Below, piece after piece: positions 8,337-36,607 of a DNA stretch of 64,000 nucleotides. The stretch's first letter is position 1; each line of letters opens with the position of its first letter. Both the position numbers and the translations under genes were made by a program. A model generated the notes under the pieces. It had not been told where the DNA came from and did not search any database. It saw only the letters and a program-made list of their open reading frames with translations. Source of the stretch: a virus; IMG/VR virus record IMGVR_UViG_3300008119_000006; one strand, written 5' to 3'.

Positions 8337-8385
8337 GGTTTTTTCAGTAGCAAATCTTGATTGAAATTTTTAAGAATAGGAAATT

Positions 8386-9162
8386 ATGAATTTATTATCA
8401 GTCGGTAATCCCAAGACTTTAAAGGGAATGGCACAAGGTTACAATACCTTTATTTTGCATCTTGCGCCATATACATTATCTGGACATAATACTTGTCCTA
8501 AGGCGTCAGCAGGTTGCGCTGCCGCTTGTTTGAATACGGCAGGCAGAGGTGGTATGTTTAAGCGTGGTGAGGTAACGAATACTATTCAGCAGGCGAGAAT
8601 CCGTAAAACTAAAATGTTTTATGATAATCGTGAACAGTTTATGGCATTATTGGTAAAAGATATTGAATTGGCAATTAAACAATCTGCCAAAGCAGGTCTT
8701 ATTCCAGTATTCCGTTTGAATGGTACTAGTGATTTATCATGGGAAAAGTATTCAGTAACCCGTAACGGTGTAGTATTTACTAACATATTTGCAGCTTTTG
8801 ATAATGTCCAGTTTTATGATTATACTAAGGTGCTTGGTCGTAAAGTAAAACATATTCCTAATTATCACCTTACATTCTCTATGGCAGATGGTAATTACAT
8901 GGATTGTAAACAGGCGGTTAATGAAGGTCTTAATATTGCTGTGGTATTTGGTATTAAGAAAGGCACAGCAATGCCAGAGAAATTCTTTAATTCTAACCTG
9001 ACCGTATTTAATGGTGATGAAAGTGATTTACGCTTTCTTGATCCAAAAGGTTGTGTGGTTGGTTTATATGCCAAAGGCAAGGCAAAGAAGGATACTAGCG
9101 GTTTCGTAAAATATCCTGTTGGTGAGTATTCATTTACTATCAAATTAGATAAGGCGGCATAA
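8386..9162 (+). CDS. GP88-family protein (Cys-cluster, radical-SAM-like)
   Basis: 'CPKASAGCAAACLNTAGRG', 'RLNGTSD', 'FYDYTK', 'NYHLTFS', 'GDESDLRFLD'. Confidence 0.75.
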   Translation: MNLLSVGNPKTLKGMAQGYNTFILHLAPYTLSGHNTCPKASAGCAAACLNTAGRGGMFKRGEVTNTIQQARIRKTKMFYDNREQFMALLVKDIELAIKQSAKAGLIPVFRLNGTSDLSWEKYSVTRNGVVFTNIFAAFDNVQFYDYTKVLGRKVKHIPNYHLTFSMADGNYMDCKQAVNEGLNIAVVFGIKKGTAMPEKFFNSNLTVFNGDESDLRFLDPKGCVVGLYAKGKAKKDTSGFVKYPVGEYSFTIKLDKAA

Positions 9163-9163
9163 T

Positions 9164-9460
9164 ATGAATTTATTTAAATTAATTGATGAAGTTACCGAAT
9201 TGACCGAGAATTATATTGGTACAATGGAAAAAGTACCTGCTGTCAAATTAGGTCTTGATAATAGGTCAGGTAGTTTGTTTGTATCACCTGATTGTATTGC
9301 TGTATATAAAGGTAATGACCGTGCCTTACAGTATTATGGTGGTTTTGAATATGTTGATACACAATATCGGCATGAAATGGGTGATTTTGTATTCTATTCA
9401 GCGGAAGATGATAGAGTCCAAGGTCATTTAGAAACTTATTTGAATGCTGAGGTAGAATAA
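9164..9460 (+). CDS. hypothetical protein
   Basis: Packed ORF; 'LQYYGGFEYV'. Confidence 0.65.
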   Translation: MNLFKLIDEVTELTENYIGTMEKVPAVKLGLDNRSGSLFVSPDCIAVYKGNDRALQYYGGFEYVDTQYRHEMGDFVFYSAEDDRVQGHLETYLNAEVE

Positions 9461-9946
9461 TGGTAACTAGTTTTAGACCTGAATGGCGGGATAATGCCAT
9501 TGAAGCATTGGTAAATGATGATTTAAATTCATTTATGACAATGCGTGAAGAATGTGGTGATGAATCGGTATTGGCACAAATACTATATTCTGGTTTCAAA
9601 GGTTATCAGAATTACTTTGATGAAGAATTAGAAACGGAATTGCGTGAGCGTGATATCTCAACAGTATTTGGAGATAATGATGATTAGTCAAACTGTATTA
9701 ATCGTATTATTTGCCTTAACTGGTACATTAACAGTAATTGCAGGCATTGGATTTATTAAACTATTTAAGGAACCGATTAAATGAATACATGGGATTTTGT
9801 GGTAAGTGAATTAAAATCACTCCAACAAGGTTTTGAGGATCATCAGGCAATCACGGAATTGTTTGTGGAACAAAAACTGTTGCGTGGATACAACATTGTT
9901 AAGAGTAAAACCAAGTAAAGCTTGACAAAAATTATTTTCGCTTTTC

Positions 9947-10363: not shown

Positions 10364-10684
10364 ATGAGTAATAATATGAATTATCGTTTAAAAGAAATTG
10401 CAATGTGCCAAGCATTAGAGAATTTTCAGGCACCAGCTAATTTTCGTTCTACTTATAAGGCAGTACCAATTGCTTTGTATGAAGAAGTAAAACAATTTAT
10501 TGATTTCACCAAGTATTATGTTTGCTTCCGTGGTCCTCGTTTTAATCGTAGTTATTCTACCCGTAAGCGTGATGCTAAGGCGTTTGATGTATATCAACGC
10601 AGTGACCGTGATACCAGAGAAATTCGTATTGAGCGTGATGCCTTTAATCGTGGTGTCCGTTGGGCAAACAATAGGAGCCATTAA
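10364..10684 (+). CDS. hypothetical protein
   Basis: Packed ORF; 'FRGPR...STRKRDA' motif. Confidence 0.6.
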   Translation: MSNNMNYRLKEIAMCQALENFQAPANFRSTYKAVPIALYEEVKQFIDFTKYYVCFRGPRFNRSYSTRKRDAKAFDVYQRSDRDTREIRIERDAFNRGVRWANNRSH

Positions 10685-10867
10685 TGAGTAATGTATATGT
10701 GGTGAGTTCTGGTCGTTTTGATGAAATGACAGGTAATACCAATTGGTTGACATTGCGAGCTTTTACTGTCTATGCAGATGCTGAGGCATGGATTGCTTCA
10801 GAGATTAAGCGTGACCCAAGCTTCAATGAAGATTTGGATTTTTATGACATTGATGGAGTATCATTAT

Positions 10868-11191
10868 ATGGTAGCTTATAAAGATTTAGATACTGGTTTG
10901 CAAGAGTATGTGGCGCACCTACAGGCAGATTATGATAGTAAAGGTGGCAACCAGTTCATAGAGTTTTATTATGAGCGTGGTCGTAAATATGCTCATGTCA
11001 TTATGAAGCATATTGGCCAGTTTAGTATTGGTCAACGCAGTTCACATTCTTGGATTATGCTTGATAATGACAAACAGTTTAAGCAAGGTGAAATTCTAAA
11101 GTCAGCAAGTTGGAAAGCACCTGCTCGTAACTTTGGTCGTGGCAATGTATTAACTGGTGAATTTAAACATATTAGATGGGCGGGTGTATGA
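10868..11191 (+). CDS. conserved phage hypothetical protein
   Basis: 'GRKY...GEILKSASWKAPARN.RGNV' motif; start moved to the ATG after GGAG. Confidence 0.65.
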   Translation: MVAYKDLDTGLQEYVAHLQADYDSKGGNQFIEFYYERGRKYAHVIMKHIGQFSIGQRSSHSWIMLDNDKQFKQGEILKSASWKAPARNFGRGNVLTGEFKHIRWAGV

Positions 11192-11426
11192 GTGATTTTG
11201 ATGATATGAATGTTGAAGAATTACAATCGTATTTCTCTGATTTTCATAAAGATTATTATGGTTTTCGTCCTCGTTTTGCAACACCAGAACAATGGCGTAA
11301 CCGTGATTGGTTGATTGAAAGTATTAATGGCATACATGATGCTTTTGATGCTATGAAGAAAACACCAGAAGGCCGTGCTCAGTTGCGTGCTGAAGGTTGG
11401 GTTATTGAAGAAAGTGAGATTGTATA

Positions 11427-11876
11427 ATGGGTACTAGGTCATTAACATTTGTATATGAAGAATATAATCATGTGCAGAAACCAGTTTGCAATATGTACCG
11501 ACAATATGATGGTTATCCAACCGGTCATGGTGCTGAGTTGGCAGAGTTTTTGAGTGGTGGTCGTTTAGTAAATGGTTTGATTGAAACCAAAACTGTTGAA
11601 GAAGTTGTTTTTAATGGTATGAGTTGTTTAGCAGCATCGATGGTTGCTTATTTCAAGCAAACACCTGGTGGTTTCTACATTTACCCTACTGATATGACCG
11701 ATTGTGGTCAAGATTATGAATATCACATCTATGATAGTGGTAAAGGTTTGTATATTGAAGTGGTTGATTGTGGTTGTAATATGTTTGGTGTCACCATGAG
11801 TGATAAACATGATTTTGTATTCAAAGGCAATCTAAAAGAGTTTACTGAATTTTGTAAAGAAAAGGAATTAGCATGA
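11427..11876 (+). CDS. conserved phage hypothetical protein
   Basis: 'MGTRS...YRQYDGYP.GHG..L' motif. Confidence 0.7.
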   Translation: MGTRSLTFVYEEYNHVQKPVCNMYRQYDGYPTGHGAELAEFLSGGRLVNGLIETKTVEEVVFNGMSCLAASMVAYFKQTPGGFYIYPTDMTDCGQDYEYHIYDSGKGLYIEVVDCGCNMFGVTMSDKHDFVFKGNLKEFTEFCKEKELA

Positions 11877-12399
11877 GTTATGATTCAGATTTTGAAAGAA
11901 TTTACATGGTTGAATTTCAATCAGGTAGAATTATTCATGTTGGCCAATATACAGTTGAAGATGTAAAAGAATATTGTGCTGATGAGCATGAGGGTGAAGT
12001 TATTAAATCCATCTATGAAGAAGTTTATACTAATGATGGTGAAGATGAATAAAAGCAATTATCAAATCGATTGGGAAAGATTGGCAAAGTATAATATTGT
12101 GGTCAATACACAGCCAAAAAACCCATTAGATGATGTTGTGAAGAATGATGAGTTGGTTTTATGGATGAAAGAATATCCTGATGCCATGGAAGCCATTAAT
12201 AAAATAAAGGATAGAAAATGAATTATTATCTTGTTGAATTTATGGATGATTCGGTTCATCCTCAATATGAAGAAGTGTCCGCTATTTCAGCAGAGGAAGC
12301 AGTTCATTCAATTAAATTAGGTTGGCCTAACGCCAAGATTTGGAATGTTTGGACTGAAACTGGTGAAAACGACCAATGGAAAGATGATGATGACGGGAG

Positions 12400-13456: not shown

Positions 13457-13542
13457 GGGTAAGCGGTAAAGTTGGAGAGTTACAGCAGACTGTAAATCTG
13501 TTGCCTATGGCTGAGTTGGTTCGAATCCATCCTTACCCACCA
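13457..13542 (+). tRNA. tRNA-Tyr (GTA)
   Basis: Acceptor GGGTAAG/CTTACCC plus A-CCA; anticodon arm GCAGA-CTGTAAA-TCTGT; long variable arm; TTCGAAT T-loop. Confidence 0.92.
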
Positions 13543-13970: not shown

Positions 13971-14045
13971 GCACCCATCGTCTAACGGTTAGGACATCGC
14001 CCTTTCACGGCGGGAATAAGAGTTCGATTCTCCTTGGGTGTACCA
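13971..14045 (+). tRNA. tRNA-Glu (TTC)
   Basis: Acceptor GCACCCA/TGGGTGT plus A-CCA; anticodon loop CTTTCAC; TTCGATT T-loop. Confidence 0.93.
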
Positions 14046-14062: not shown

Positions 14063-15226
14063 ATGAATAAAAATGCAAAGCAGTTTATCGTAGCGTGTGA
14101 GCAAGTGTTTGGTAGTGAAACAATTATTACCCGTGACGGCATTACACAGATTTGTAATGAATCTGGTGCACCGTATCCCTATTGGTTGGTTACTAAGGCA
14201 CAATATCGTTATGACCGTGGTCAATACAAAGTACCACCATCAGGTGAAAAGATTGTAAAGAAATCTGAAACTATTGTAAAGAATCCTGAACCTGAAGTTG
14301 AAATGGCATATCAGACCAACACAGCACAAGTGCTAGAGTTTCGTCAGCCAAAACTGATTGATGATTCTGAACCTGCTGTGCCACAAAAATGGCCTGATTA
14401 TGTACCATTTGGTTTCTACAAAGATATGAAGAATATCATTAGTAGCAAATCATTCTATCCGATATTCGTTACTGGTTTGTCAGGCAACGGCAAGACCTTG
14501 ATGGTCGAGCAAGTGTGTGCTGAATTAAATAGGGAGTGTATTCGTGTTAATATTTCAGTTGAAACTGATGAGAGCGACCTACTTGGTGGTCCTACCTTGG
14601 TCAATGGTAATGTGGTCAATCGTGATGGTCCTGTTCTTATTGCAATGAAGCGTGGCGCAGTATTGTTGATTGACGAAGTAGACCGTGGTTCTAATAAGTT
14701 GATGTGTTTGCAAGGCATCATGGAAGGCAAACCACACTACAATAAGAAATCTGGTGAGATGGTATATCCAAAGAATGGCTTTACTATCATCGCAACGGCA
14801 AACACCAAAGGTCGTGGTAGTGACGAAGGCAAATATCTGTCCCAAATCCTTGACGATGCTTTCTTAGAAAGATTCCCAATTACGGTAGAACAGGAATATC
14901 CTGATGCCAAAACTGAGAAGAAAATTCTATCACCATTGCTTGATGATAAAGATTTTGTTGAGAACCTATGCCAATGGGCTGATGTGGTTCGTAAATCGTA
15001 CCAAGAAGGTGCTACTGATGAGATTATCTCCACTCGCCGATTGGTACATATTGCCAAGGCATATGGTATCTTTAAAGATAGAATGAAAGCCATTACATTG
15101 TGTGTGAATCGTTTTGACGAAGAAACCAAAATGGCATTCTTAGACCTGTATTCTAAGGTCGATAGTTCGGTAGAATCACCTGCTAATACAGCATTCAATT
15201 CTACCACAACCGAGGTTGCCAATTAA
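14063..15226 (+). CDS. CobS-like MoxR-family AAA+ ATPase
   Basis: Walker A GLSGNGKT, Walker B LLIDEVD, ATANTKGRG, AFLERF, ISTRRL. Confidence 0.88.
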   Translation: MNKNAKQFIVACEQVFGSETIITRDGITQICNESGAPYPYWLVTKAQYRYDRGQYKVPPSGEKIVKKSETIVKNPEPEVEMAYQTNTAQVLEFRQPKLIDDSEPAVPQKWPDYVPFGFYKDMKNIISSKSFYPIFVTGLSGNGKTLMVEQVCAELNRECIRVNISVETDESDLLGGPTLVNGNVVNRDGPVLIAMKRGAVLLIDEVDRGSNKLMCLQGIMEGKPHYNKKSGEMVYPKNGFTIIATANTKGRGSDEGKYLSQILDDAFLERFPITVEQEYPDAKTEKKILSPLLDDKDFVENLCQWADVVRKSYQEGATDEIISTRRLVHIAKAYGIFKDRMKAITLCVNRFDEETKMAFLDLYSKVDSSVESPANTAFNSTTTEVAN

Positions 15227-20883: not shown

Positions 20884-21549
20884 ATGGTAAAAAAAGCAAA
20901 AGTAGTTGGTGAAGTTTCTGAAAACACCAACGAATTAAAAAGTGAGCAAGTACAACTTTACGGCGCCAATTATTTTTGTAGTAGCATCTACTCTTTGATT
21001 GAACCAAAGTTTCTTGATACACTAAGAAAAGTATCTAAACTATATCTTGATGAATCAAAGAAAAAAGTTAAACTAGATAAAACTTTTCCTATTGCTCAAG
21101 GTGACAATATGTTTACTGATCCAAGGATTAGTGACTTTGTTGGTTTTGTGAGTGGTGCTGCACATCAAGTATTGCTCTCGCAAGGTTACAATGTAACCGG
21201 TTTTAAAATGGTATATACTGAAATGTGGGCTCAAGAACACCACACAGGTTCTGGCCACGAAGAACACATTCACGGCATGGGTAATCAAATATCTGGATTT
21301 TATTTCCTTGATACCCCAAAAGATGGACCGAGAGTTGTGTTTCATGATCCAAGACCTGCTAAAGTTTATGCCAATTTACCTGAAATGGATATTACTCAAG
21401 CAACGATTGCAAGCAACATGATAAACTATACGCCTGAACCTGGTTTGATGATTCTAACTAATTCTTGGTTGCCACACACCATTCAAAGAAATCCAAGTAA
21501 ACAACCATTAAGATTAATTCATTTTAATTTGGCCATAACAAACGCATGA
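20884..21549 (+). CDS. putative 2OG-Fe(II) oxygenase (TIGR02466-like)
   Basis: HxH (HIH), SGFYFL, FHDPR, PEPG...SWLPH. Confidence 0.75.
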   Translation: MVKKAKVVGEVSENTNELKSEQVQLYGANYFCSSIYSLIEPKFLDTLRKVSKLYLDESKKKVKLDKTFPIAQGDNMFTDPRISDFVGFVSGAAHQVLLSQGYNVTGFKMVYTEMWAQEHHTGSGHEEHIHGMGNQISGFYFLDTPKDGPRVVFHDPRPAKVYANLPEMDITQATIASNMINYTPEPGLMILTNSWLPHTIQRNPSKQPLRLIHFNLAITNA

Positions 21550-22896: not shown

Positions 22897-23493
22897 ATGA
22901 TACCCGATATATTATGTGTCAACAATTTCTTTGATGACCCACACAAAATTGTTGAATTGGCCAAAAAACAAAAATATTATCTAACAAAAGATAACCCATC
23001 GATGACCAATCCAAAGTTTGGTTATAGTGGTATAAGAACATTACACATTTCTGATATATTAAGTGAAGAATTGTGTTATGAATTAAATAATAAGATAGTA
23101 TCCAAACTCTTTAAAGACAGCGTACCGTCCAAAATTAAATTACAATCCATATGTTTGTTTCATTGTTTATTTGATACCCATATACCAAATAATTCTTGGG
23201 TACACAAAGACACCTCTTTATATTCTGGTTTAATTTATTTAAATGAAAACTTTGTGGATAAATTTAATAATCATGGAACAAAAATATACAGAAATGGTGA
23301 AGAAACCAACATTAGTTATGAATTCAATAAAATGATATTGTATCGTGGAGATTATTTTCATTCTCCCAATTTTGGTTTTGGCCAAAGCATTGATGATTGT
23401 AGATTAAGCCTTAATTTTTTCATTAATGAAATTAATATTGATATGAAAAATTTGAATCGTGTGAAAGAAAAACATTATGATTACGAAACATGA
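22897..23493 (+). CDS. putative 2OG-Fe(II) oxygenase (DUF6445-like)
   Basis: 'NNFFDDP...GIRT...WVHKD...SGLIYLN...GT...FNKMILY....HS...RL'; HxD...H triad. Confidence 0.7.
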   Translation: MIPDILCVNNFFDDPHKIVELAKKQKYYLTKDNPSMTNPKFGYSGIRTLHISDILSEELCYELNNKIVSKLFKDSVPSKIKLQSICLFHCLFDTHIPNNSWVHKDTSLYSGLIYLNENFVDKFNNHGTKIYRNGEETNISYEFNKMILYRGDYFHSPNFGFGQSIDDCRLSLNFFINEINIDMKNLNRVKEKHYDYET

Positions 23494-24049
23494 GTGGTGG
23501 TCAACTCCCGTTTGGGAAATAGACACTGGTTTAAACTATCTTTTTAATGATAAATTATTGGAAGAATTGAATGGTACGATACCAAAAAATTCACGCACTA
23601 ACCTATGGGAATATTCAACTCCGTGCTTGAATATTTTAAAAGATAAAATATTTGAATCTTTGGATAACACGGTAACTGAATACTTTCCAGACTTTTACCC
23701 TTACAATCCATGTATTATGTTTGGCTGGATTAATGAAAATCTTAAAGGTGTGGGTAACCCACTACATGACCATGGAGGTTCATTATTAACCTGTACTTAC
23801 TATGTTAAATCTCCGGCCGATTGTGGTGATTTGTTATTGGTTGACCCTAGAGGTGGTGTAAATTGGGAATGGTTGGAAGATGGTGGTATTCGTGGCATTA
23901 AATACAAAAGAGTTAAGCCGAAAGAGGGTAAATTGGTGTTATTTCCGGCATATGTTTTACATGAGGTTGAGAAAAATATGTCGGATGACAAAAGGATTAG
24001 TATTACTACAAATATACATAATGGATCAGTATCAAATATTAGTAGATAA
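23477..24049 (+). CDS. putative 2OG-Fe(II) oxygenase (TIGR02466-like)
   Basis: HDH, TYYV, GDLLLVDPR, PKEGKLVLFPAYVLHEV, RISI. Confidence 0.82.
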   Translation: MITKHEWWSTPVWEIDTGLNYLFNDKLLEELNGTIPKNSRTNLWEYSTPCLNILKDKIFESLDNTVTEYFPDFYPYNPCIMFGWINENLKGVGNPLHDHGGSLLTCTYYVKSPADCGDLLLVDPRGGVNWEWLEDGGIRGIKYKRVKPKEGKLVLFPAYVLHEVEKNMSDDKRISITTNIHNGSVSNISR

Positions 24050-24052
24050 ATA
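24045..24052 (+). promoter_or_regulatory. T4 late-promoter-like element
   Basis: GATAAATA (consensus TATAAATA) about 25 nt before the Cys-rich gene. Confidence 0.45.
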
Positions 24053-24076
24053 CCTCATTAATTTAAGGAATTGTAA

Positions 24077-24559
24077 ATGACATTACCAGCCTCGGGACCC
24101 ATAACCATATCCAATATCAATACGGAAATTGGCCAAGCGCCTACTTTTTCCTCATCTTTAAACTTTTTGAATGGGTTATTGAAATCGGCGCCAGCATCTC
24201 CTAATATGGCGGCCTTTTACAGTAAGGCATATTATCAAAGCAACAATGAAGGTAATTGTAACAATGGTAATTGCTCTGAATCTGGCGGTCCAAACGGTAA
24301 TTGTACAAGTAACTGTAATTGTGGGGACACAAATTGTAGCAATTGCTTAATTGCAGGTCCATCAGATTGTTCGAATTGTTCAAATTGTAATGCAATTAAT
24401 TGTGCAAACTGTGATAGCCAACCATTTTTGCAAAATAATTGTAATTGTGCTTGTTCATATAATTGTACACAAAACGCTCCGTCTTATAATTGCACCACCT
24501 CCACCGTAAGTTTTAACTGTGCGTGTGCTTGTTGGATTTGTGCTTGTGCTTGTTGGTAA
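24077..24559 (+). CDS. Cys/Asn-rich protein; putative RiPP-like substrate with tail-adhesin-like N-terminus
   Basis: 60 Cys-free residues starting MTLPASGPITISNINTEIG, then 23 Cys in 100 aa, ending CACACWICACACW; AAGGA RBS. Confidence 0.8.
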   Translation: MTLPASGPITISNINTEIGQAPTFSSSLNFLNGLLKSAPASPNMAAFYSKAYYQSNNEGNCNNGNCSESGGPNGNCTSNCNCGDTNCSNCLIAGPSDCSNCSNCNAINCANCDSQPFLQNNCNCACSYNCTQNAPSYNCTTSTVSFNCACACWICACACW

Positions 24560-24575
24560 ATAAAAAAGGATTATT

Positions 24576-26015
24576 ATGATATTTGAAATATATGCTGAAA
24601 AAAATTCTACTGATGGTAAGAAGTTTTACTATGATAATGTAAATTCAATTTTGAAAGATGAAACTGGTTTTGTTTATGAATATCCAGAAATAAAAAAACC
24701 TAATCTAAAAGAAACTGTACCTTTTTCGAAAGAAAATCCACTTAAAAAATCAAAAAATATTGATTTGATTAAAATTCAATTAGGTTTATCTTGCAATTAC
24801 ACCTGTGACTATTGCAGTCAAAGATTTGTTGAAAGGCCACCAGAAACAAGCAAAAAAGATATTGAAGAATTTATGCGTAAACTGGACGCATTAAACATTA
24901 CTGAAGAATCTGGTTTAAGAGTAGAATTTTGGGGTGGCGAACCATTAGTATATTGGAAAACTTTAAAACCTTTGGCCGAAGCTTTTGCTGAAAGATATAG
25001 CCATTGGAAAAAGAAAGTTAATTTCAGTATGGTAACCAATGGATCACTATTAACAAGAGAGATTTGTTCTTGGATCTACTACATGGGATTTAGTGTTGGC
25101 ATCAGTCACGATGGTCCTGGCCAATATGTTCGTGGTCCTGATCCGTTTGATGACGCTGAGAAGAAAAAGATTATCTTGGAGTTTTATAACATCATGAGGC
25201 CACAAGGCAGAATTAGTTTTAATGCCATGTTGAATAATAAAAATATTGACCGTAAAGCAATTTATGATTTCTTTGCTGAGTTGACTGGTGATCCATCAGT
25301 TCCAATTGGTGAAGGTGGATTCATTGATGCGTATGATGATGCAGCAGTAAATAATTCATTAATTACATTAGACGAACACTTTAATTACAGAAGAAAATCT
25401 TTTGGCGATATTTACGCCTCCCAAGGCAGTATTAATTTTGGTATGGTCTTTACCAAAATTGATAATTTTATTAAAGGCACATTGGCTCATGTTGAAAACA
25501 AATATGTTGGCCAAAAGTGTGGTATGGAAGAACCAACAACAGTTGCACTTGATTTAAAAGGTAATATTGTAACTTGTCAGAACGTTTCTATCGTTGAGAA
25601 TAGTAAGAATGGTGAACCACATTATGGTGGTAATCTAGATGATTATGATAATGTTAGCTTAACATCTGCCACACATTGGATGAATCGTGTGAGTTGTTCG
25701 GATTGTCCAGTTCTACATATCTGTAAAGGTTCTTGTATGTATTTGGACGGAAAACATTGGGATGTAACTTGTGATAATGCTTATTCGGATGCCATTAGTT
25801 TATTTGCTTTGGCATTAGAAAAAATAACAGGTGGTTATATTCCTGTTACGATTAAAGGTGAAGGTTTACCTTTATCACGCCAAGATATTTTTGGAACAGT
25901 ATATAAACATGAAGAAAAACCCACAAGAAAAATTATACCAATTAAAGTTGTTGCAGAAAAAATTGGTGAATTGAATGATGTGGAAATTTATGGAAAATCT
26001 AGAGTAGAGGTATAA
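24576..26015 (+). CDS. radical SAM protein with SPASM domain (peptide/protein maturase type)
   Basis: CNYTCDYC (CxxxCxxC), FWGGEPL, VTNG, ISHDG; C-terminal CG...GNIVTC...CSDCPVLHICKGSC...C. Confidence 0.92.
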   Translation: MIFEIYAEKNSTDGKKFYYDNVNSILKDETGFVYEYPEIKKPNLKETVPFSKENPLKKSKNIDLIKIQLGLSCNYTCDYCSQRFVERPPETSKKDIEEFMRKLDALNITEESGLRVEFWGGEPLVYWKTLKPLAEAFAERYSHWKKKVNFSMVTNGSLLTREICSWIYYMGFSVGISHDGPGQYVRGPDPFDDAEKKKIILEFYNIMRPQGRISFNAMLNNKNIDRKAIYDFFAELTGDPSVPIGEGGFIDAYDDAAVNNSLITLDEHFNYRRKSFGDIYASQGSINFGMVFTKIDNFIKGTLAHVENKYVGQKCGMEEPTTVALDLKGNIVTCQNVSIVENSKNGEPHYGGNLDDYDNVSLTSATHWMNRVSCSDCPVLHICKGSCMYLDGKHWDVTCDNAYSDAISLFALALEKITGGYIPVTIKGEGLPLSRQDIFGTVYKHEEKPTRKIIPIKVVAEKIGELNDVEIYGKSRVEV

Positions 26016-26687
26016 ATGTCGGTAACAATAACACCAAATTTACAAGAAAAAATTGATTTTTTTGATAGTATGGTAAATATCACTAGTGTTGAGATTTATA
26101 ATAATCCAATTGAATACAAACAATTGATTGGTGGTGTTGAGTGTTTTATGTTTAAGTTATTTAAAAATGAACATTTTATTGAATTGGTTATACCAAAAAT
26201 ATTTTGTTCAGAACCTCTTCCACAAGAAGTTATACAAAATAAAAGTCAAATTGATATGTTGATGGAAGGTTATTTTGATAGAAAGTCTTGTACAGATAAT
26301 GATTGTACATTGTGTATCAATACCGATTATTTGGATTCTTTTTATTATTTAAATCCAGAGACCGATATCATTGAACAAATTCATAAGGCCACAGCCATAA
26401 CGGAAATTAGTGTGATACAAGCTCAATTGTTGGAAAAAATTAATGAATTTGAGTTTGTGGAAAATATTAAGTTATATAACAATAGTATCTCAAATTATAT
26501 TGTTATTAATTGTGATATGAAACATTCAAACGATACAAATATCTTTACAAAATATTCAGGTACATTTCCAATTGAAGTTTGTGAAGATGTTGAACAACAC
26601 CCCAATATAGTTGAAAAAATAAAAGAATATTATAATAATACTATGCCAAAAACTTTAGAAGAACACACCAACATTTTACCACTATGA
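26016..26687 (+). CDS. hypothetical protein in modification cassette
   Basis: Abuts the radical SAM stop and overlaps the halogenase start. Confidence 0.65.
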   Translation: MSVTITPNLQEKIDFFDSMVNITSVEIYNNPIEYKQLIGGVECFMFKLFKNEHFIELVIPKIFCSEPLPQEVIQNKSQIDMLMEGYFDRKSCTDNDCTLCINTDYLDSFYYLNPETDIIEQIHKATAITEISVIQAQLLEKINEFEFVENIKLYNNSISNYIVINCDMKHSNDTNIFTKYSGTFPIEVCEDVEQHPNIVEKIKEYYNNTMPKTLEEHTNILPL

Positions 26688-28207
26688 AATATACAATTAT
26701 TGGTGGAGGTACGGCAGGATGGTTAACAGCTCTTTATGTTAGACATATTTGTCCAAAAGATGAAGTGGTTGTAGTTGCAAGTAGTGAGATAGGAATATTG
26801 GGTGCAGGCGAAGGTACTACACCACAATTCGTTGAACTGATGAACGAAATGAATATTCCAATCTCTGATATCATTAAAAACGCCAAAGGTACATTTAAAA
26901 ACGGTATTAAATTTACTAATTGGAATGGAGATGGTAGCCATTATTATCACGGGTTTCAAGATTACTTTAAGAATACCGATGAGCGAGCAAATGCCGATTT
27001 TAAACCATACTACTTGAATAAGATTTCATCTGGCGATTCATTCAATGATATCAATCTAACATCATATATTTCAGAAAAAAATCAAGTAAAAATACACAAA
27101 GAAAATTACGAATCATACGGAGCATATGCGTTACATTTTGATGCCAATCTATTGGCAAAACATTTACAGTCCGTTGGTCTAAAAAGAAATATTAAATTAA
27201 TTGATGATGAAGTAATTTCTATTAATAATGATTCTGAAGGTTTTATTAAAAGTTTTGATTTAAAATCACAAGGATTAATGACAACCGATTTTGTGTTCGA
27301 TTGCACAGGATTTAAAAGATTAATTATTGGTCAACATTATGGTTCTAAATGGAAATCATACAAAGAGCATTTACCATTGAACCGAGCACTTCCTTTTTTC
27401 ATTGATAATGATGGCGAAGAATTGCCACCATATACAGAATCAATTGCAATGAAACATGGATGGGTGTGGAAAATTCCCGTGCAAGGTCGTCATGGGTGTG
27501 GTTATGTTTTCGATTCTAATTTTGTTTCAGATGAAGATATTATTAAAGAATTAGAAGAATATTTTGGCCACAAAATAACAAGCCCAAGAGCATTTAATTT
27601 TGATCCCGGTTGTTTTGAGGAGGTTTGTGTAAAAAATTGTGTTGCTATGGGTTTAAGTTCGAGCTTTGTTGAACCTCTAGAAGCAACAAGCATATGGGTA
27701 ACTATTCTAATGTTAAAGAGTTGGGGAAACAACAAAGAAAAAATATTAGAAAAAGACTTAAATATAATTAAAGACTTTAATGATTCTATGAAACGGACAA
27801 ATTTAGATGTTTTAAATTTTATACACTTCCACTATAAAACAAAGAGAAACGATAGTGAATTTTGGATAAATTTTTCTACAAAAAATAAAATTCTACCATT
27901 TATTGAAGATTTAAATTTAATAATAAAAGATAATATAATTGAAAAACACAATTTAACCTATCTAAATGATTTGGAAACAAACAGAATCAATCCAAGCATA
28001 AAACATATACCAATGTTTTCAGAAAGTAGTTGGTTACAAGTTGGATCTGGTATAAAGTATTATAGTTCTGAGATGGCTAAAAAAATATTAAACCGAGATT
28101 TTAAAGATTTTACAAAAACTGAAAATGATTTGACCGAATTATTTGAGTTAGAAAGTAGTTTTATGTTTCACCATAATGATTATATTGAGGAACTTAAAAA
28201 TACATAA
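26684..28207 (+). CDS. flavin-dependent tryptophan halogenase-family protein
   Basis: GGGTAG, GAGEGT, GTFKNGIKF (position of catalytic Lys), WVWKIP (WxWxIP), FVEPLEATS. Confidence 0.9.
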   Translation: MKYTIIGGGTAGWLTALYVRHICPKDEVVVVASSEIGILGAGEGTTPQFVELMNEMNIPISDIIKNAKGTFKNGIKFTNWNGDGSHYYHGFQDYFKNTDERANADFKPYYLNKISSGDSFNDINLTSYISEKNQVKIHKENYESYGAYALHFDANLLAKHLQSVGLKRNIKLIDDEVISINNDSEGFIKSFDLKSQGLMTTDFVFDCTGFKRLIIGQHYGSKWKSYKEHLPLNRALPFFIDNDGEELPPYTESIAMKHGWVWKIPVQGRHGCGYVFDSNFVSDEDIIKELEEYFGHKITSPRAFNFDPGCFEEVCVKNCVAMGLSSSFVEPLEATSIWVTILMLKSWGNNKEKILEKDLNIIKDFNDSMKRTNLDVLNFIHFHYKTKRNDSEFWINFSTKNKILPFIEDLNLIIKDNIIEKHNLTYLNDLETNRINPSIKHIPMFSESSWLQVGSGIKYYSSEMAKKILNRDFKDFTKTENDLTELFELESSFMFHHNDYIEELKNT

Positions 28208-28863
28208 TGATTATTGAAAATGTTTTTGATAGTACAATCGTAAGAATACAATGTCAAAATGAAGAACTTTATCGTAATGAAGATTTAACAAAAAGTGTTG
28301 ACCACGTTTTGAATATGCCTACGGTGAAAAACAGAAAACGAAATGACAAAGGCGATTCACATAAGGGTAACGGTTTAACTTCTGTTGGTCAGTCATACTT
28401 AGATTTAATTCACTTACCTGGTGCTTCAAACTTAACCAATTGGATTACAGAACAATTTCTTTTGGTACACAAACAATTAGGTGTTGACAAAGAAGTAAAA
28501 TCGGTGTATTATAAAAGAAGTTGGGCAAATAGACTATTTCGTGATGGCCAAGGATTATGCCATAATCATGTTAAACTGGATGAGTATATGTCTGAAATGA
28601 CCCAATACTCACCAGAGAATTTTAGACCAGATGCCGTTGGAATTTTTTATGTTGATGTACCAGAAGGCAGTTCAGATTTAGTTTTTATACGCAACGGTAA
28701 AGCAGATACATATATTCATGAATATGATGAATGTGATAGGTACTATTTAAAACCAAAACAAGGAGAATTAGTAATACATTCACCAGAAGTATATCATGCT
28801 GTTAGTGTCCATAATAGTGATTTGCCTCGTAATGTATTTGTATTCGATATAGATTATGTTTAA
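28207..28863 (+). CDS. putative 2OG-Fe(II) oxygenase (TIGR02466-like)
   Basis: SWAN, HNH, GIFYV, PKQGELVI...YHAV, RNVFVF. Confidence 0.75.
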   Translation: MIIENVFDSTIVRIQCQNEELYRNEDLTKSVDHVLNMPTVKNRKRNDKGDSHKGNGLTSVGQSYLDLIHLPGASNLTNWITEQFLLVHKQLGVDKEVKSVYYKRSWANRLFRDGQGLCHNHVKLDEYMSEMTQYSPENFRPDAVGIFYVDVPEGSSDLVFIRNGKADTYIHEYDECDRYYLKPKQGELVIHSPEVYHAVSVHNSDLPRNVFVFDIDYV

Positions 28864-29995: not shown

Positions 29996-30164
29996 AGTTT
30001 CTTATTTCGTTAAAATAAGTGGTGGGTCGGAAAATGAAAGTTAAAGAGTTAATTAAAAATTTATATGAGGCTGAAATTAAGCATGATACGCCATTGATTA
30101 AAAAACTATGGTTTAAATTGTTAAAGAAAAGCCTTAAGCATAAACATACCGAAGCGGTAAAGTA

Positions 30165-30455
30165 ATTCGTAGAAGTTGTTTGAACGTTGTTGTGGACGTG
30201 GGTGCGATTCCCACCACCTCCACCAAAAGTATATTGACGAACCGAGTTATCGGTAGCAAACACACAATATAGTTGTGGCAATATACTTCTGATGGGGGTG
30301 CCTAGATTCGACATGGCAATAATTAGAACAATGGAGAATCGGCAGAGAAGCCGTAAAAACTATTTAAATTAAACGCAAACGATAATAAGTATGCACTTGC
30401 TGCCTGATAGGTAAGCGGAGTTTCGCCAGGTGAACTTAGCAACAGAATCACCTGG
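30165..30455 (+). ncRNA. ssrA: circularly permuted (two-piece) tmRNA
   Basis: T-arm GTGGG-TGCGATT-CCCAC and CACCTCC-A-CCA (ends 30225) precede the 5' strand GGGGGTG (30294-30300), giving G3-U70; tag ORF GCA...GCC TGA (30375-30407) reads ANDNKYALAA; outer ends approximate. Confidence 0.9.
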
Positions 30456-30522
30456 ATAAATAAAACACCAGCAACACACAAACCGCTGGTAATACACATA
30501 AACACACACAAGGAGTAACAAT

Positions 30523-32781: not shown

Positions 32782-33663
32782 ATGAGTTTCGCAAATCTAA
32801 AACGCCAATCCGGCAACCTCGACAAACTTGCTAAAGCAGTTGAGGCACTCTCCCAAACATCCGAAGGTTCTGAAAAGTCCGATAACTATTGGAAACCAGA
32901 AGTTGATAAAGCAGGTAATGGCATGGCCACTATCCGTTTCTTACCAGCATCTGAAGCCGATGGTGAAGATGGTCTGCCTTGGGTTAAAATCTTCTCCCAT
33001 GGTTTTCAAGGACCTGGTGGTTGGTTAATTGATAATTGTTTGACCACAAAGAATCAACAATGTCCAGTATGTGAACACAATTCTACATTATGGAATTCTG
33101 GCATTGAAGCGAATAAAGATGTTGTTCGCAAACAGAAACGTAAGTTAAATTATGTTGCCAATGTGTATATCGTTTCGGATCCTAAACATCCAGAAAATGA
33201 AGGCAAAGTGAAATTGTTCCGCTTTGGTAAGAAAATCTTTGATAAGATTACTGAAGCAATGAATCCACAGTTTGAAGATGAATCACCAATCAATCCATTT
33301 GATATGTGGAAAGGTGCTAACTTCAAGTTGAAGATTCGTAAGGTAGAAGGTTATCAGAACTATGATAAGTCAGAGTTTGATTCACCAACTGCTCTATTAG
33401 ATGATGATGCAGCATTAGAGAAAATCTGGAAGTCAGAGTTCTCTTTGAATGAATTGACTGCTGGTAAAGAGTTTAAATCTTATGATGAGTTGAAGCAACG
33501 CCTCGACAAAGTTCTTGGTTTGAATGGTGAAGTAGTTGCACCAAAGACAACCGTAGAAACTATTAAAGAGCAAGTTCGTACTGCTCCTAAGTCAGTTGAA
33601 CCAAAGATTCATGAAGATGATGATGATATGTCTTATTTTGCCAAGTTGGCAGAAGAAGATTAA
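32782..33663 (+). CDS. gp32: single-stranded DNA-binding protein gp32
   Basis: DKAGNG.A.IRFLP, HGFQG.GGW...C..T....CPVCE, GKKIFDKI, acidic C-terminal tail. Confidence 0.96.
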   Translation: MSFANLKRQSGNLDKLAKAVEALSQTSEGSEKSDNYWKPEVDKAGNGMATIRFLPASEADGEDGLPWVKIFSHGFQGPGGWLIDNCLTTKNQQCPVCEHNSTLWNSGIEANKDVVRKQKRKLNYVANVYIVSDPKHPENEGKVKLFRFGKKIFDKITEAMNPQFEDESPINPFDMWKGANFKLKIRKVEGYQNYDKSEFDSPTALLDDDAALEKIWKSEFSLNELTAGKEFKSYDELKQRLDKVLGLNGEVVAPKTTVETIKEQVRTAPKSVEPKIHEDDDDMSYFAKLAEED

Positions 33664-33711: not shown

Positions 33712-35154
33712 TTAAGTCGGTCTAAGATTTTGTTTAAGAATTTTTTGAAGTGTGGGGTCATCAGTACGAACATTTACCGTTGTATCAAGTAGTACGCCTC
33801 GGCCTCCAGCACCAACACTATTGACTTTCGTAGAAGCATCTACCACAACATTATGCATACCAGCAAACTCAGCATTTTCTAAATTAACATTTTCATCAAT
33901 CGCTGATTGTACTCTGCTGGTAATAGGATTGGCTTGTGGTGCCTCGGGTGTTGCGGTTGGAACTGACTGTGATTGACTAGATTCTGGCGAGGTAGACTTA
34001 GATATATCTCTACCCATGCTTACCGCACCAATAGCAGTAGATAATGCAGTGCCAACAAATGGTACTATTGCAGCTGCACCTTCAGCAAGTTCTAAACCAG
34101 CACCAACAACATCACCTTCTTTTAATCTATCATAAGCGAAGTATCCTGCGGCACCAAGGCCTAATCCAAAAGGAAGTTTTTTAAGTATGGACTTACCGGC
34201 GGACTTAGCAGCACCTTTAACACCTGCTTTCTCGGTTTTTTTCTCTATTTCTTTTTCGGTGGCCTTTTCAACTTTTTTACCGTATTCTTTATCTAAAGCT
34301 TTTTCTTGTTCTTTGGTAAATTTTTCTGTTCCTTTTTTAGGTTTTTGTACTTCTTTACCTTTTTGGCCAAGTTGACCTATTGCTTTTTCAGCCAGTTTTT
34401 TAAGACCTAACATTCCAGCAACAGTAGCTAAACCATTAGTAAGAAATTTGATAGCACCCCAAAGTGCTTCTGCAATAGAAGTTATAACTTTTTCAACCAT
34501 TGCGGCCACATTTTTAAATATATTACCAATAAAATCTAAAAGGTTAAATCCTTCTTTTTGTTCTTTTATTGGGGTTGCTGTACCACCTCGTTTAGATAAA
34601 GCATCCAATAGTTCTTTATGCCATTTTTCTTTTTCTCTATCTTTTTCTTTTTTAAAGTTTTTTTCAATTTTAAGTTTTTTGCTTTCAGCAATGTACTCAG
34701 CCTTCATTAGGTTGTATAACCTTGCCAACACATCAGCAACACCATCACCTTTTCTCAGTTTTTGTTTTTGGCCATCTGAAACATTGGTGTATAAAGCCGG
34801 TTCAATACTGCTTAGTTTACTACCACTAGTTCTTTCATTAATTTGATTCGCTCGGCCTTGTTTATTTTTCACACCTTTGTTGGCAAAATATTCAATATCT
34901 TCTCTTTTGCGGCCAGTTGCACTACCAACTATCGATGACATTGTATTACCCATTAACATTCTAACAATGTTTAAGTAATCAAATTTTTCTTTGAATCCCT
35001 TACTTCTGGCGGCCATTTTATCTGATATGGCACCAGTAATCGATTTCATTGCGCCAAATTCTCCACTACTAGCTTTCTCACGAATGAGTTCACCTAATGA
35101 TTTTTTGTTTACTCTAGAAGCTTGTTGATATGAATTAATGGCCATGTTATGCAC
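33712..35154 (-). CDS. tape-measure/baseplate hub-like protein (gp29-like), paralogue 2
   Basis: Helical, Lys/Ala/Gly-rich with 'KKLPFGLGLGAAGYFAYDR...GAGLE' segment; lies downstream of gp26/gp51. Confidence 0.55.
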   Translation of the reverse strand: MHNMAINSYQQASRVNKKSLGELIREKASSGEFGAMKSITGAISDKMAARSKGFKEKFDYLNIVRMLMGNTMSSIVGSATGRKREDIEYFANKGVKNKQGRANQINERTSGSKLSSIEPALYTNVSDGQKQKLRKGDGVADVLARLYNLMKAEYIAESKKLKIEKNFKKEKDREKEKWHKELLDALSKRGGTATPIKEQKEGFNLLDFIGNIFKNVAAMVEKVITSIAEALWGAIKFLTNGLATVAGMLGLKKLAEKAIGQLGQKGKEVQKPKKGTEKFTKEQEKALDKEYGKKVEKATEKEIEKKTEKAGVKGAAKSAGKSILKKLPFGLGLGAAGYFAYDRLKEGDVVGAGLELAEGAAAIVPFVGTALSTAIGAVSMGRDISKSTSPESSQSQSVPTATPEAPQANPITSRVQSAIDENVNLENAEFAGMHNVVVDASTKVNSVGAGGRGVLLDTTVNVRTDDPTLQKILKQNLRPT

Positions 35155-36607
35155 CCATAAAAAGTGGTAAATCTAAATCGCTGCCTGTATGTAATACTTG
35201 TGTGGAGGGTCCTGCACCCACATTGTTTATTGTTTGGCTAGTATTTAGAACAATGTTGTTTGGTTTGGATGTGCCTTTTAAATCTTTGTTTTGAACTGAT
35301 TGGTTGTTCAATACGGCACCACTTTGTGGAATTGGTGCTACTGTTGATATAGGTGAGTTGGAAAGAAATAAATCCGCTTCACGGGCTCGTCTGGCTTTTA
35401 ATACAGGATGAGGCCTGCCTTGTTCGGTAGCAATACCATTTCTAATAATTTCTGAAGCTTTATTTGTATCTCCCGAATCGATTGCGGTTTTCAAACCTTT
35501 TAAACCTTTTAAAGATCCTACATTATAGGCGTAACTAGTTAGTGCAGCTTTTTGATTATCATTAAGTTTACTCCAAGTAGAATCACCTAAATCTTTTTTT
35601 GCTTGTCCTTCATACTTTGGCATATCCATTTTTAATAATTTTTGTGCCTGCTCTTTAGTAATGATAGTGTCTATTCCTTTATTACCCAAAATTGGAATTT
35701 GTTCGTCACCCGCTTGTATAAAACCTTGTTTGTATTCATCATCTTTAATTTGGTGACCATAACCAATTGAAATTTTTCCACCATCAGGATAGGCTTTCTT
35801 AGCAAAACCTTCCTCTTTAATAATAAGAGCCATACTACCACCAGCAGCAACTGCACCACCTACTGCTAAACTACCAGCACTAAGTGGTCCAGATTTAGAT
35901 GCTGATGTGCTTGGTGTTTGAATTGTAGGTGTTTCTTTGGTACTTGTTGCTGGTTTAGTTTCTTCTTTTGGTATTTTATCTACTGTTTCTTTTTTAGGAG
36001 AAACCTTAGGTTCTTTTTTAATTTTAATTTTACCTAATTTTGTAGTTTGACTTTTTTTAATTTGTTCAATTAATTGTTTGTGGCGTCTTTCTTCTTCTTC
36101 ATGTAATTCTTGCTCAAAGTTTTTTTCTAATTCATAATTAAGTTTATTTTTTTCATTATGAGTTTTTACTAAATTAAACAGTTTACCTGCCACATCGGCT
36201 ACAGAGTTACCTTTACGGAGACCTTCTCTTTGGCCAGATGTTACTGTGGTATAAAATGATAAAGACATTGAAGATTTTTTATCGCCTAAGAAATACTTCA
36301 TAGTATCTTTATTGGCACCAAATGTTTTGCCAAGTAAAGATGCGCCTGTTTTACCAACAAGCGATTTAGCGATGTTTAATGGATTGAATTTTTCTTTGAT
36401 GCCAACTACTTTGGCTTTGAAATTTTCTGATATAGTTTGTTTAAGAGGTTTGCCCTCTATCGCACCATTTCTGATGTTGGCAAGAAAACCTCTTTCTCGT
36501 ATTTCTTTAAGGCGCTGACGGTCTGTACCAGTAAGTGGTCGCTTTTGTGCAATTAAAGCATCCACTTCTTGAAGTTCTTGTAATAGTTCTTCGCTACTCT
36601 TTTTCAT
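35147..36607 (-). CDS. tape-measure/hub-like protein with phage lysozyme (GH24-like) domain
   Basis: 'IIKEEGF...AYPD....SIGYGH', 'NQKAALTSYAYNVG', 'RRAREADLF'. Confidence 0.7.
   Translation of the reverse strand: MKKSSEELLQELQEVDALIAQKRPLTGTDRQRLKEIRERGFLANIRNGAIEGKPLKQTISENFKAKVVGIKEKFNPLNIAKSLVGKTGASLLGKTFGANKDTMKYFLGDKKSSMSLSFYTTVTSGQREGLRKGNSVADVAGKLFNLVKTHNEKNKLNYELEKNFEQELHEEEERRHKQLIEQIKKSQTTKLGKIKIKKEPKVSPKKETVDKIPKEETKPATSTKETPTIQTPSTSASKSGPLSAGSLAVGGAVAAGGSMALIIKEEGFAKKAYPDGGKISIGYGHQIKDDEYKQGFIQAGDEQIPILGNKGIDTIITKEQAQKLLKMDMPKYEGQAKKDLGDSTWSKLNDNQKAALTSYAYNVGSLKGLKGLKTAIDSGDTNKASEIIRNGIATEQGRPHPVLKARRAREADLFLSNSPISTVAPIPQSGAVLNNQSVQNKDLKGTSKPNNIVLNTSQTINNVGAGPSTQVLHTGSDLDLPLFMGA

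Follow-up and report, generated by a model that had tools for sequence, protein, structure and literature searches.

A phage gene cassette that pairs an asparagine-cysteine-rich, fibre-type protein with a SPASM radical SAM enzyme, a flavin halogenase, and putative oxygenases

We present here an analysis of a seven-gene cassette that encodes a cysteine-rich protein together with a set of candidate protein-modifying enzymes. It lies in a 64,000-nucleotide (nt) stretch of viral DNA, IMG/VR virus record IMGVR_UViG_3300008119_000006, which is called the window throughout. The window has a GC content of about 35% and belongs to a T4-like myophage, with a gene for a gp32-type single-stranded DNA-binding protein (SSB) at 32782, baseplate wedge and tube-cap genes at 39 to 53 kb, and a CobS-like gene. 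At the DNA level, megablast found nothing similar to the region among 50,697 cultured phage records. The cassette occupies positions 22897-28863 and consists of open reading frames (ORFs) A to G. A first-pass annotation, made from the letters alone, had described seven co-oriented, tightly packed genes between conserved T4-like core genes: two 2-oxoglutarate (2OG) oxygenases, a 160-amino-acid (aa) protein with 23 Cys, a radical S-adenosylmethionine (SAM) enzyme with a CxxxCxxC motif and a SPASM Cys array, a protein of no named family, a flavin adenine dinucleotide (FAD) halogenase with WxWxIP, and a third 2OG oxygenase. Every ORF was recovered at its position on the + strand, overlapping or closely abutting its neighbours, and the Cys-rich protein (gene C) and the motifs of the radical SAM enzyme (gene D) and the halogenase (gene F) were present as described. 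Two of the oxygenase calls (genes B and G) hold at family level, and gene A is the weakest of the three. The core-gene setting applies loosely, with the baseplate block and the SSB gene as its basis; directly beside the cassette stand accessory genes.

Gene C (24077-24559, +) encodes 160 residues, of which 23 are Cys, 16 of these preceded by Asn. Residues 1 to 58 (24077-24250, +) contain no Cys, are matched by a hidden Markov model at 1.3e-27, and are proposed to form a fibre-docking head. The first Cys comes after residue 60, and residues 61 to 160 (24257-24559, +) make up the Asn-Cys (NC) core, with all 23 Cys, 16 NC pairs, and six NxxC motifs. Trp is found at residues 153 and 160, the latter closing the protein in ...CACACW, and there is no Arg, Lys, or His beyond residue 50. 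Pfam, NCBIfam, and PHROG contain no family that matches gene C. Searches of cultured phages by tblastn with the whole protein and with its N-terminal 58 aa likewise gave no match, under a low-complexity filter that may mask the NC core; cultured carriers were located solely through searches with the radical SAM enzyme and with the C-terminal extension domain described below. A profile search among 1.84 billion proteins returned 478 representative proteins at E<1e-3, of which 229 reached E<1e-10, each a match either to the N-terminal and NC part or to the extension domain. The Cys and Asn columns are invariant in 35 short forms. With such conservation across its family, C cannot be ascribed to chance.

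Members of the family differ in what surrounds the core. Short forms of 115 to 175 aa, like that of the window, lie directly upstream of the radical SAM gene, and long forms of about 300 aa, with an extra C-terminal domain and a hydrophobic end, lie downstream of it. In other architectures a Gly_rich_2 fibre domain is inserted between the N-terminal module and the core, a Hint domain directly follows the last Cys, or a Peptidase_S74 domain stands straight after the core. Peptidase_S74 is a self-cleaving intramolecular chaperone that aids the trimerization of fibres and spikes. The C-terminal extension domain (about 165 aa, no Pfam match; L009:8400-8894 and relatives, P0069, P0073, P0076, P0091, and L099:5630-7480) has a Cys or Ser as its first residue, preceded by a poly-Gly, poly-Pro/Arg, or NC tract, and closes with a hydrophobic helix. 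The long NC proteins end in it, and so do large proteins, up to about 1,850 aa, of the Gly-rich or DUF4815 kind. It may serve fibre assembly or anchoring, as a further module besides Hint and Peptidase_S74. An AlphaFold2 (AF2) monomer of C from a 35-row alignment had a mean predicted local distance difference test (pLDDT) score of 46.6, with residues 1 to 30 (72 to 82) as the only confident part. A three-copy complex prediction scored 0.00 with an uncertain fold and counts neither way.

A T4-type, late-promoter-like heptamer, ATAAATA (24046-24052, +), is located 24 nt 5′ of the gene C ATG and is followed by an AAGGA ribosome-binding site. It is the only copy within the cassette. The heptamer is depleted three-fold in the window (13 copies found, 40.6 expected), with 12 copies on the + strand. 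In this it resembles a T4-type late promoter that selection purges from other sites, and gene C is probably expressed late. Several other copies stand just 5′ of the starts of baseplate or structural genes (39280, 44810, 51763, 59611, and 60967).

Gene D (24576-26015, +) encodes a radical SAM enzyme of the SPASM type (PF04055, 37.5 bits against a cut-off of 29.5; phrog_1802, 1e-63). Its CxxxCxxC motif at residues 73 to 80 (C73, C77, and C80) and its seven-Cys SPASM array (C315, C334, C374, C377, C383, C387, and C399) are invariant in 28 homologs, and the array follows the pattern for two auxiliary clusters, Cx9-15Gx4C ... Cx2Cx5Cx3C ... C. The top NCBIfam matches are all peptide or protein maturases: PapB (1.3e-24), QhpD (4e-20), CcpM (4e-19), and the SCIFF maturase. 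In bits, D scores 87.1 against a cut-off of 340 for the PapB family (NF047865), 71.8 against 453 for QhpD (TIGR03906), 51.8 against 525 for the CrpC-related family TIGR04463, and 49.4 against 349 for the anaerobic sulfatase-maturating enzyme (anSME; TIGR03942). An AF2 model, built from an alignment that excluded rows from annotated phage records, had a pLDDT of 88. Its closest fold is the thioether synthase CteB (Foldseek, 3.5e-13), followed by anSME, ChlB, TigE, SuiB, and SkfB; at its N terminus, three beta strands form a small unit, and the first helix comes no earlier than residue 81. The closest solved relative by sequence is 8vpo, a cyclopropyl synthase. Homology places D in a class, that of SPASM enzymes predicted to act on a polypeptide, and does not fix its reaction. 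The GenBank record of Achromobacter phage JWF annotates its radical SAM protein as anSME. This identity was rejected, as C lacks the C/S-x-P/A-x-R motif and as none of the cassette and flanking ORFs that were examined encodes a recognisable sulfatase.

Genes C and D remain together across distant genomes. A search of IMG/VR with the radical SAM alignment found 449 viral contigs that encode a relative of D. Among 81 viral loci seeded on the enzyme, 76 carry a same-strand ORF with an NC core, directly adjacent in most and otherwise within about 1.5 kb, and four of the five exceptions are cut by the contig end on the relevant side. The reverse search, with C alone, gave 14 loci, in each of which a homolog of D is adjacent or no more than about 1.6 kb away. 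In a scan of one genome per prokaryotic species, the enzyme clade was found on 216 contigs at 35 to 56% identity, mostly from Burkholderiales (Limnohabitans, Polynucleobacter, and Paraburkholderia). Fifty-three of the bacterial loci had enough upstream sequence to be assessed (enzymes 35 to 47% identical). In 52 of these, an (NC)n tract is found in a same-strand ORF of about 190 to 620 aa that lies upstream by no more than 4.5 kb, and in 50 of the 53 the tract is less than 12 aa from the stop; the background rate of such tracts is 72 in 13,320 six-frame ORFs of the bacterial loci. The first-pass annotation had held that radical SAM homologs without a Cys-rich neighbour would speak against its proposal, and this is not what the 76 paired viral and 52 paired bacterial loci look like. 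That the pair stays together while gene order changes speaks well for a functional link, and C is very probably the substrate of D. On one viral contig (L020), two divergent enzyme copies (8385-9680 and 10634-11956; 37% and 44% identity to D) lie downstream of a single short NC protein.

Elsewhere, NC tracts are found on tail fibres. Seven of ten representative NC-tailed bacterial proteins match PHROG tail-fibre families; one of the ten is a collagen-repeat fibre, and one carries the tract and then a Hint domain. In Achromobacter phage JWF, gp028 has a T4 gp36 tail-fibre domain according to its record, with an NC tract directly before Hint and the radical SAM gene (gp030) two genes away. The side tail fibre of Ralstonia phage RSP15 (ORF048) ends in NCQCGN, a minimal NCQC tail, three genes from the radical SAM gene (ORF045); RSP15 had been considered as an exception without an NC partner and was dismissed as such on account of this tail. 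In two isolate-genome contigs (L103 and L104), a short NC protein like that of the window comes right after a distal long-tail-fibre subunit match and right before the radical SAM gene, and in Polynucleobacter the genes run from tail assembly protein through J-type central fibre, distal fibre, and NC protein to radical SAM enzyme. In T-even phages, genes for fibre-tip adhesins or assembly proteins of the gp38 type follow the distal-fibre gene. Cyanophage SynMITS9220M01 encodes a 616-aa protein ending in the extension domain between genes annotated "fiber protein" and "tail fiber." Judged from these sequence contexts, the NC tract is a module of virion fibre proteins and not a free peptide precursor, and C itself is probably a part of the virion fibre tip. 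In two further observations, the SynMITS9220M01 protein (gp028; L099:5630-7480) has about 33 uninterrupted Pro and then 8 Arg directly before its extension domain, and a protein of about 275 aa without a Pfam family is encoded between the NC-tailed fibre gene and the oxygenase and radical SAM genes in 42 bacterial loci (for example, L105:5128-5955) and in phage RSP15 (ORF047, L001:3314-4129), with no counterpart in the window.

Gene F (26684-28207, +) is a member of the Trp_halogenase family (PF04820, 2e-97, 327 bits against a cut-off of 21). The features expected of this family are all present: GxGxxG at residues 7 to 12, WxWxIP at 260 to 265, the catalytic Lys K72 (in FKNGI), and the catalytic Glu E330 (in EPLEA). 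BrvH is the best match in the PDB (8e-59), with PyrH, PrnA, and VirX1 (1e-45) also found; these alignments stop near residue 400 of 507, before the C-terminal module, the part that binds Trp in halogenases acting on free L-tryptophan. The QhpG family (NF049967) gives 16.9 against a cut-off of 240. BrvH is listed as acting on indolic substrates, and BrvH and VirX1 have open active sites and non-Trp substrates (PMC8407142).

The presence of the halogenase follows the last residue of the NC protein. Of 25 distinct short forms with Trp as the last residue, 24 have it, at about 2 to 3.4 kb from the NC gene, and the one locus without it has just 2.7 kb of downstream sequence. It was found in none of 17 short forms ending in GG, NCNC, or CC, with L022 and L058 giving only a 21%-identical flavoprotein-like match, and in none of 27 long forms. 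Two S74-fused forms with a halogenase read ...CFW and then the S74 Ser. Characterised Peptidase_S74 members cleave at this Ser, so these proteins too would end in Trp. This restriction to loci with a terminal Trp, native or exposed by S74 cleavage, within what amounts to one or two clades, lends support to the first-pass proposal of a Trp in the shared substrate as the target of the halogenase. On present sequence comparisons, whether F would halogenate the C-terminal Trp of C is evenly balanced.

The oxygenase genes are more loosely attached. Gene A (22897-23493, +) matches DUF6445 (28.3 bits against a cut-off of 24), has an HxD...H motif, and is 2OG- or cupin-like; it has homologs in L004, L005, L007, L024, and L029 and stands upstream of the pair only in the closest relatives. 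Gene B (23477-24049, +) belongs to PF13759, 2OG-FeII_Oxy_5 (2.6e-18, 66.7 bits against a cut-off of 27). Gene G (28207-28863, +), whose start codon overlaps the F stop, also falls in PF13759 (7.4e-7, 29.9 bits against 27) and matches phrog_81 at 2e-14; it adjoins the halogenase in L004, L005, L008, and L100. TIGR02466 was narrowly missed (60.9 against 62.5). A further 2OG-Fe(II) oxygenase gene upstream of the cassette (20884-21549, +) belongs to PF13759 as well (4.3e-15, 56.4 bits; phrog_81; HxH at residues 128 to 130), and its membership in the cassette is uncertain. Elsewhere, the gene between fibre and radical SAM enzyme is a PF13759 oxygenase in 47 bacterial loci, with PF13640, a different 2OG type, in 15. 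Among viral loci, PF13759 occurs within 1.5 kb in 23 of 25 Trp-ending and 17 of 29 long-form loci, and it is missing altogether from 15 of 19 non-Trp short-form loci.

The PF13759 oxygenase is a frequent but dispensable accessory of the NC protein and radical SAM pair. Hydroxylation of the NC protein by such an enzyme is plausible, with B as the candidate hydroxylase; that the oxygenases of the window act on C we rate at somewhat less than an even chance. Their inclusion in a single pathway, as first annotated, is favoured by the 47 bacterial loci and by most related viral loci, and is not favoured by the non-Trp short-form loci. Gene E (26016-26687, +) encodes 223 aa and had no usable match in Pfam, NCBIfam, PHROG, or Atlas. 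Its homologs (27 to 34% identity) are in L004, L005, L007, and L024, and it lies between the radical SAM enzyme and the halogenase only in the closest relatives.

Across these loci, the NC protein and the radical SAM enzyme are the core, and the halogenase, E, and the oxygenases are lineage-specific accessories. Of the first-pass description of a complete post-translational modification pathway with a Cys-rich substrate, the pairing of C and D as probable substrate and enzyme and the likely halogenase link stand; seven genes as one obligatory pathway are not supported.

Several known systems resemble parts of the cassette. In the streptococcal system for a peptide made by the ribosome and modified after translation (RiPP), the radical SAM enzyme NxxcB links Cys to the Asn beta-carbon in NxxC motifs as a thioether (PMC9389541). 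The likeness is that of a SPASM-type enzyme beside a substrate with recurring NxxC, a motif found six times in C; it is a likeness of motif and adjacency, and NxxcA is short with a single motif, whereas the tract of C is 100 residues long, has 23 Cys, and is of fibre type. QhpD and the flavoprotein QhpG modify the small Cys-rich protein QhpC and its Trp (PMC7876137): the radical SAM/SPASM enzyme installs several Cys thioethers, and a flavoprotein of halogenase-like fold then acts on Trp. QhpD is the third-best NCBIfam match of D, and F gives a faint match to QhpG. The cassette differs in that the WxWxIP, Lys, and Glu of F mark it as a halogenase and not a hydroxylase, that the acceptors in QhpC are Asp and Glu, and that there is no dehydrogenase context here, the candidate substrate being a phage fibre-type protein. 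Among functional precedents, QhpD, QhpG, and QhpC come closest to a flavoprotein that modifies Trp in a small protein stapled by a radical SAM enzyme. CrpC, a SPASM radical SAM enzyme of Methanococcus voltae, has been shown experimentally to form ranthionine cross-links on the neighbouring Cys-rich repeat protein CrpA (PMC13692751). A Cys-free N-terminal region of CrpA engages the enzyme, and gene C also has a Cys-free N terminus; the CrpC system is, however, archaeal and cellular, with a CxxQ/D motif in 17-residue repeats.

CteB with SCIFF and PapB with freyrasin offer the closest fold and the best NCBIfam match, respectively, and likewise have conserved Cys-rich substrates; D is only 17 to 18% identical to these enzymes, and the substrates here are fibre proteins. 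On the side of the substrate, some relatives of C carry Peptidase_S74 straight after the core as fibre chaperones do, whereas C of the window has no S74. The short NC gene that comes right after the distal-fibre subunit in prophage-like tail regions recalls the gp38-type adhesins of T-even phages; no sequence similarity between gene C and gp38 was found. To our knowledge, neither S74 chaperones nor gp38-type adhesins use enzymatic side-chain chemistry. F shares its family with BrvH and with VirX1, which is from a cyanophage and lacks a known natural substrate (PMC8407142); what differs here is a specific candidate substrate two genes from F, the C-terminal Trp of a protein.

Taken together, we favour the view that the cassette serves the maturation of a virion fibre-tip protein and is not a pathway to a free peptide; this is likely, with a good share of doubt. 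C would be a small late protein with an N-terminal docking module and an Asn-Cys-rich end. D would install cross-links that join the sulfur of Cys to a carbon in the side chain of Asn or of some other residue, as ranthionine-type thioethers within or between chains. Such thioethers would be redox-proof staples, able to form in the reducing cytoplasm, where disulfides cannot. In the lineage of the window, F would then halogenate the C-terminal Trp of C, and B, perhaps with G and A, would hydroxylate C. As a full picture, a distal tail-fibre cap or adhesin whose Asn-Cys ladder is stapled by the radical SAM enzyme, with a halogenated terminal Trp and hydroxylated residues in this lineage, is offered tentatively and is on balance improbable in all its details.

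Several observations count against this proposal. In the window, the cassette has no fibre genes beside it; its neighbours are accessory genes, the baseplate block is about 10 kb away, and the fibre identity that we propose for C is drawn from shared modules and from gene context in other loci. One viral locus (L006) is a true exception, the only one, with a radical SAM gene and no NC gene within 6 to 8 kb. The enzyme of this locus (L006:6103-7551), 70% identical, has primase/helicase-like replication genes around it, and a halogenase follows 6.9 kb downstream. The further points of this kind are given below, beside the alternatives that they favour.

One alternative is that C and D alone are linked and that F, A, B, G, and E are unrelated auxiliary genes of a variable region, acting on small molecules or other proteins; we regard it as rather unlikely. 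Trp-halogenases are common in cyanophages and pelagiphages, and the halogenase of pelagiphage HTVC008M is paired with a 2OG gene without a radical SAM gene in the 13-kb region examined. In the radical SAM tree, the halogenase trait falls in two well-supported clades within an unresolved polytomy and may reflect one or two events. A Burkholderiales fibre (L110) ends in ...CDCW yet has no halogenase in its 15-kb locus, so the halogenase link is not replicated beyond the T4-like clades. PF13759 genes are very frequent in such phages, with three within 8 kb here, which makes their adjacency weak evidence, and their absence from most non-Trp short-form loci points the same way. The separation of the accessories from the pair is opposed by the match between halogenase and terminal Trp, which is exact in viral loci, including the S74-fused forms that would end in Trp after cleavage, and by the placement of PF13759 between fibre gene and radical SAM gene in bacterial loci far from these phages. 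It is also opposed by the QhpCDG precedent, in which the flavoprotein acts on Trp only within the complex of radical SAM enzyme and substrate (PMC7876137).

A second alternative accepts C and D as partners and gives them another reaction: conversion of Cys to formylglycine or dehydroalanine, epimerisation, or C-C or C-O links. The solved enzymes nearest to D, by sequence or by fold, differ in what they do (cyclopropanation by TigE, formylglycine formation by anSME, and C-C bonds by SuiB); the anSME fold is nearly as close as CteB, and the closest solved sequence relative is the cyclopropyl synthase. D also falls far under every specific NCBIfam cut-off, and many chemistries are known among SPASM enzymes (PMC9389541). 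Thioether formation from Cys sulfur to carbon is nevertheless the reaction that we choose for D, with its chances of being right or wrong about equal, because Cys and Asn are invariant, the six NxxC motifs are as in NxxcB, and SPASM enzymes are known to staple whole proteins. The invariant residues and the recurring motif fit the known Cys-Asn thioether reaction (PMC9389541), the top-ranked family matches of D are thioether formers, and C has neither the anSME substrate motif nor any Arg, Lys, or His after residue 50. Another reaction is accordingly rated as rather improbable.

We consider it highly improbable that the Asn-Cys tract is instead a metal or iron-sulfur ladder at a trimeric fibre tip, with the radical SAM enzyme employed in cluster or metal handling or in minor tailoring. 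The tip of T4 gp37 holds iron at His-x-His sites, an alternating CxCxC would set all thiols on one face of a strand, the tract is at the distal end of fibres, and the NC core shows no confident stand-alone fold in AF2 (pLDDT 27 to 43), a result that also stands against our own proposal. Simple metal binding, however, leaves the near-constant, dedicated SPASM partner unexplained, and Asn is as conserved as Cys.

The RiPP framing of the first-pass annotation, with residues 1 to 58 as a leader and the Asn-Cys part as the core of a free antimicrobial, signalling, or host-manipulating peptide released at lysis, is set aside as very unlikely: the leader-then-core layout of C, the RiPP-type enzymes alongside, the RiPP maturases among the best family matches of D, and a core disordered in AF2 as in many precursor peptides are outweighed by NC tracts that end true tail fibres and adjoin distal-fibre genes, by fusion of the core to Peptidase_S74, Hint, and Gly-rich fibre domains, by a core that is strongly conserved and not diversified, by the late-promoter-like motif upstream of C, by the lack of an immunity gene in the cassette, and by Pfam, NCBIfam, and PHROG searches in which neither the seven genes nor their flanks gave a leader protease or an exporter, where a classical RiPP cluster would combine a protease and/or exporter with a short precursor.

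Other features of the window were noted outside the cassette. A permuted, two-piece transfer-messenger RNA (tmRNA) gene is found at 30120-30459 (+), with 115.5 bits for Rfam tmRNA_permuted and 85.2 bits, barely over the gathering score, for beta_tmRNA; ARAGORN gives its tag peptide as ANDNKYALAA. From the tmRNA, a betaproteobacterium may be suspected as host, and the many homologs of the radical SAM enzyme in Burkholderiales prophages would agree with this. Genes for tRNA-Tyr(GTA) (13457-13542, +) and tRNA-Glu(TTC) (13971-14045, +) adjoin the CobS-like (porphyrin biosynthesis/ATPase) gene at 14063-15226. Two adjacent ORFs of 480 to 486 aa (33712-36607, −), between the SSB gene and the baseplate block, have endolysin/peptidase-like PHROG matches.

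A literature search, with subscription-only journals outside its scope, found no paper describing a system of NC fibre, radical SAM enzyme, and halogenase and no description of protein-Trp halogenation on a part of a virion. With its enzyme clade on 449 viral and 216 bacterial contigs, the system is widespread. If our proposal is true, it would provide the first halogenated residue known in a virion and a case of RiPP-type chemistry building or tuning a host-recognition tip. It would extend protein-scale thioether stapling, so far described for QhpC and, since 2026, CrpA, to viruses, and it would supply a concrete substrate for orphan viral halogenases, which lack known natural substrates. Tail-fibre tips set the host range of phages; if they are covalently modified, sequence alone would not define the receptor-binding surface, which would bear on host-range prediction and phage engineering.

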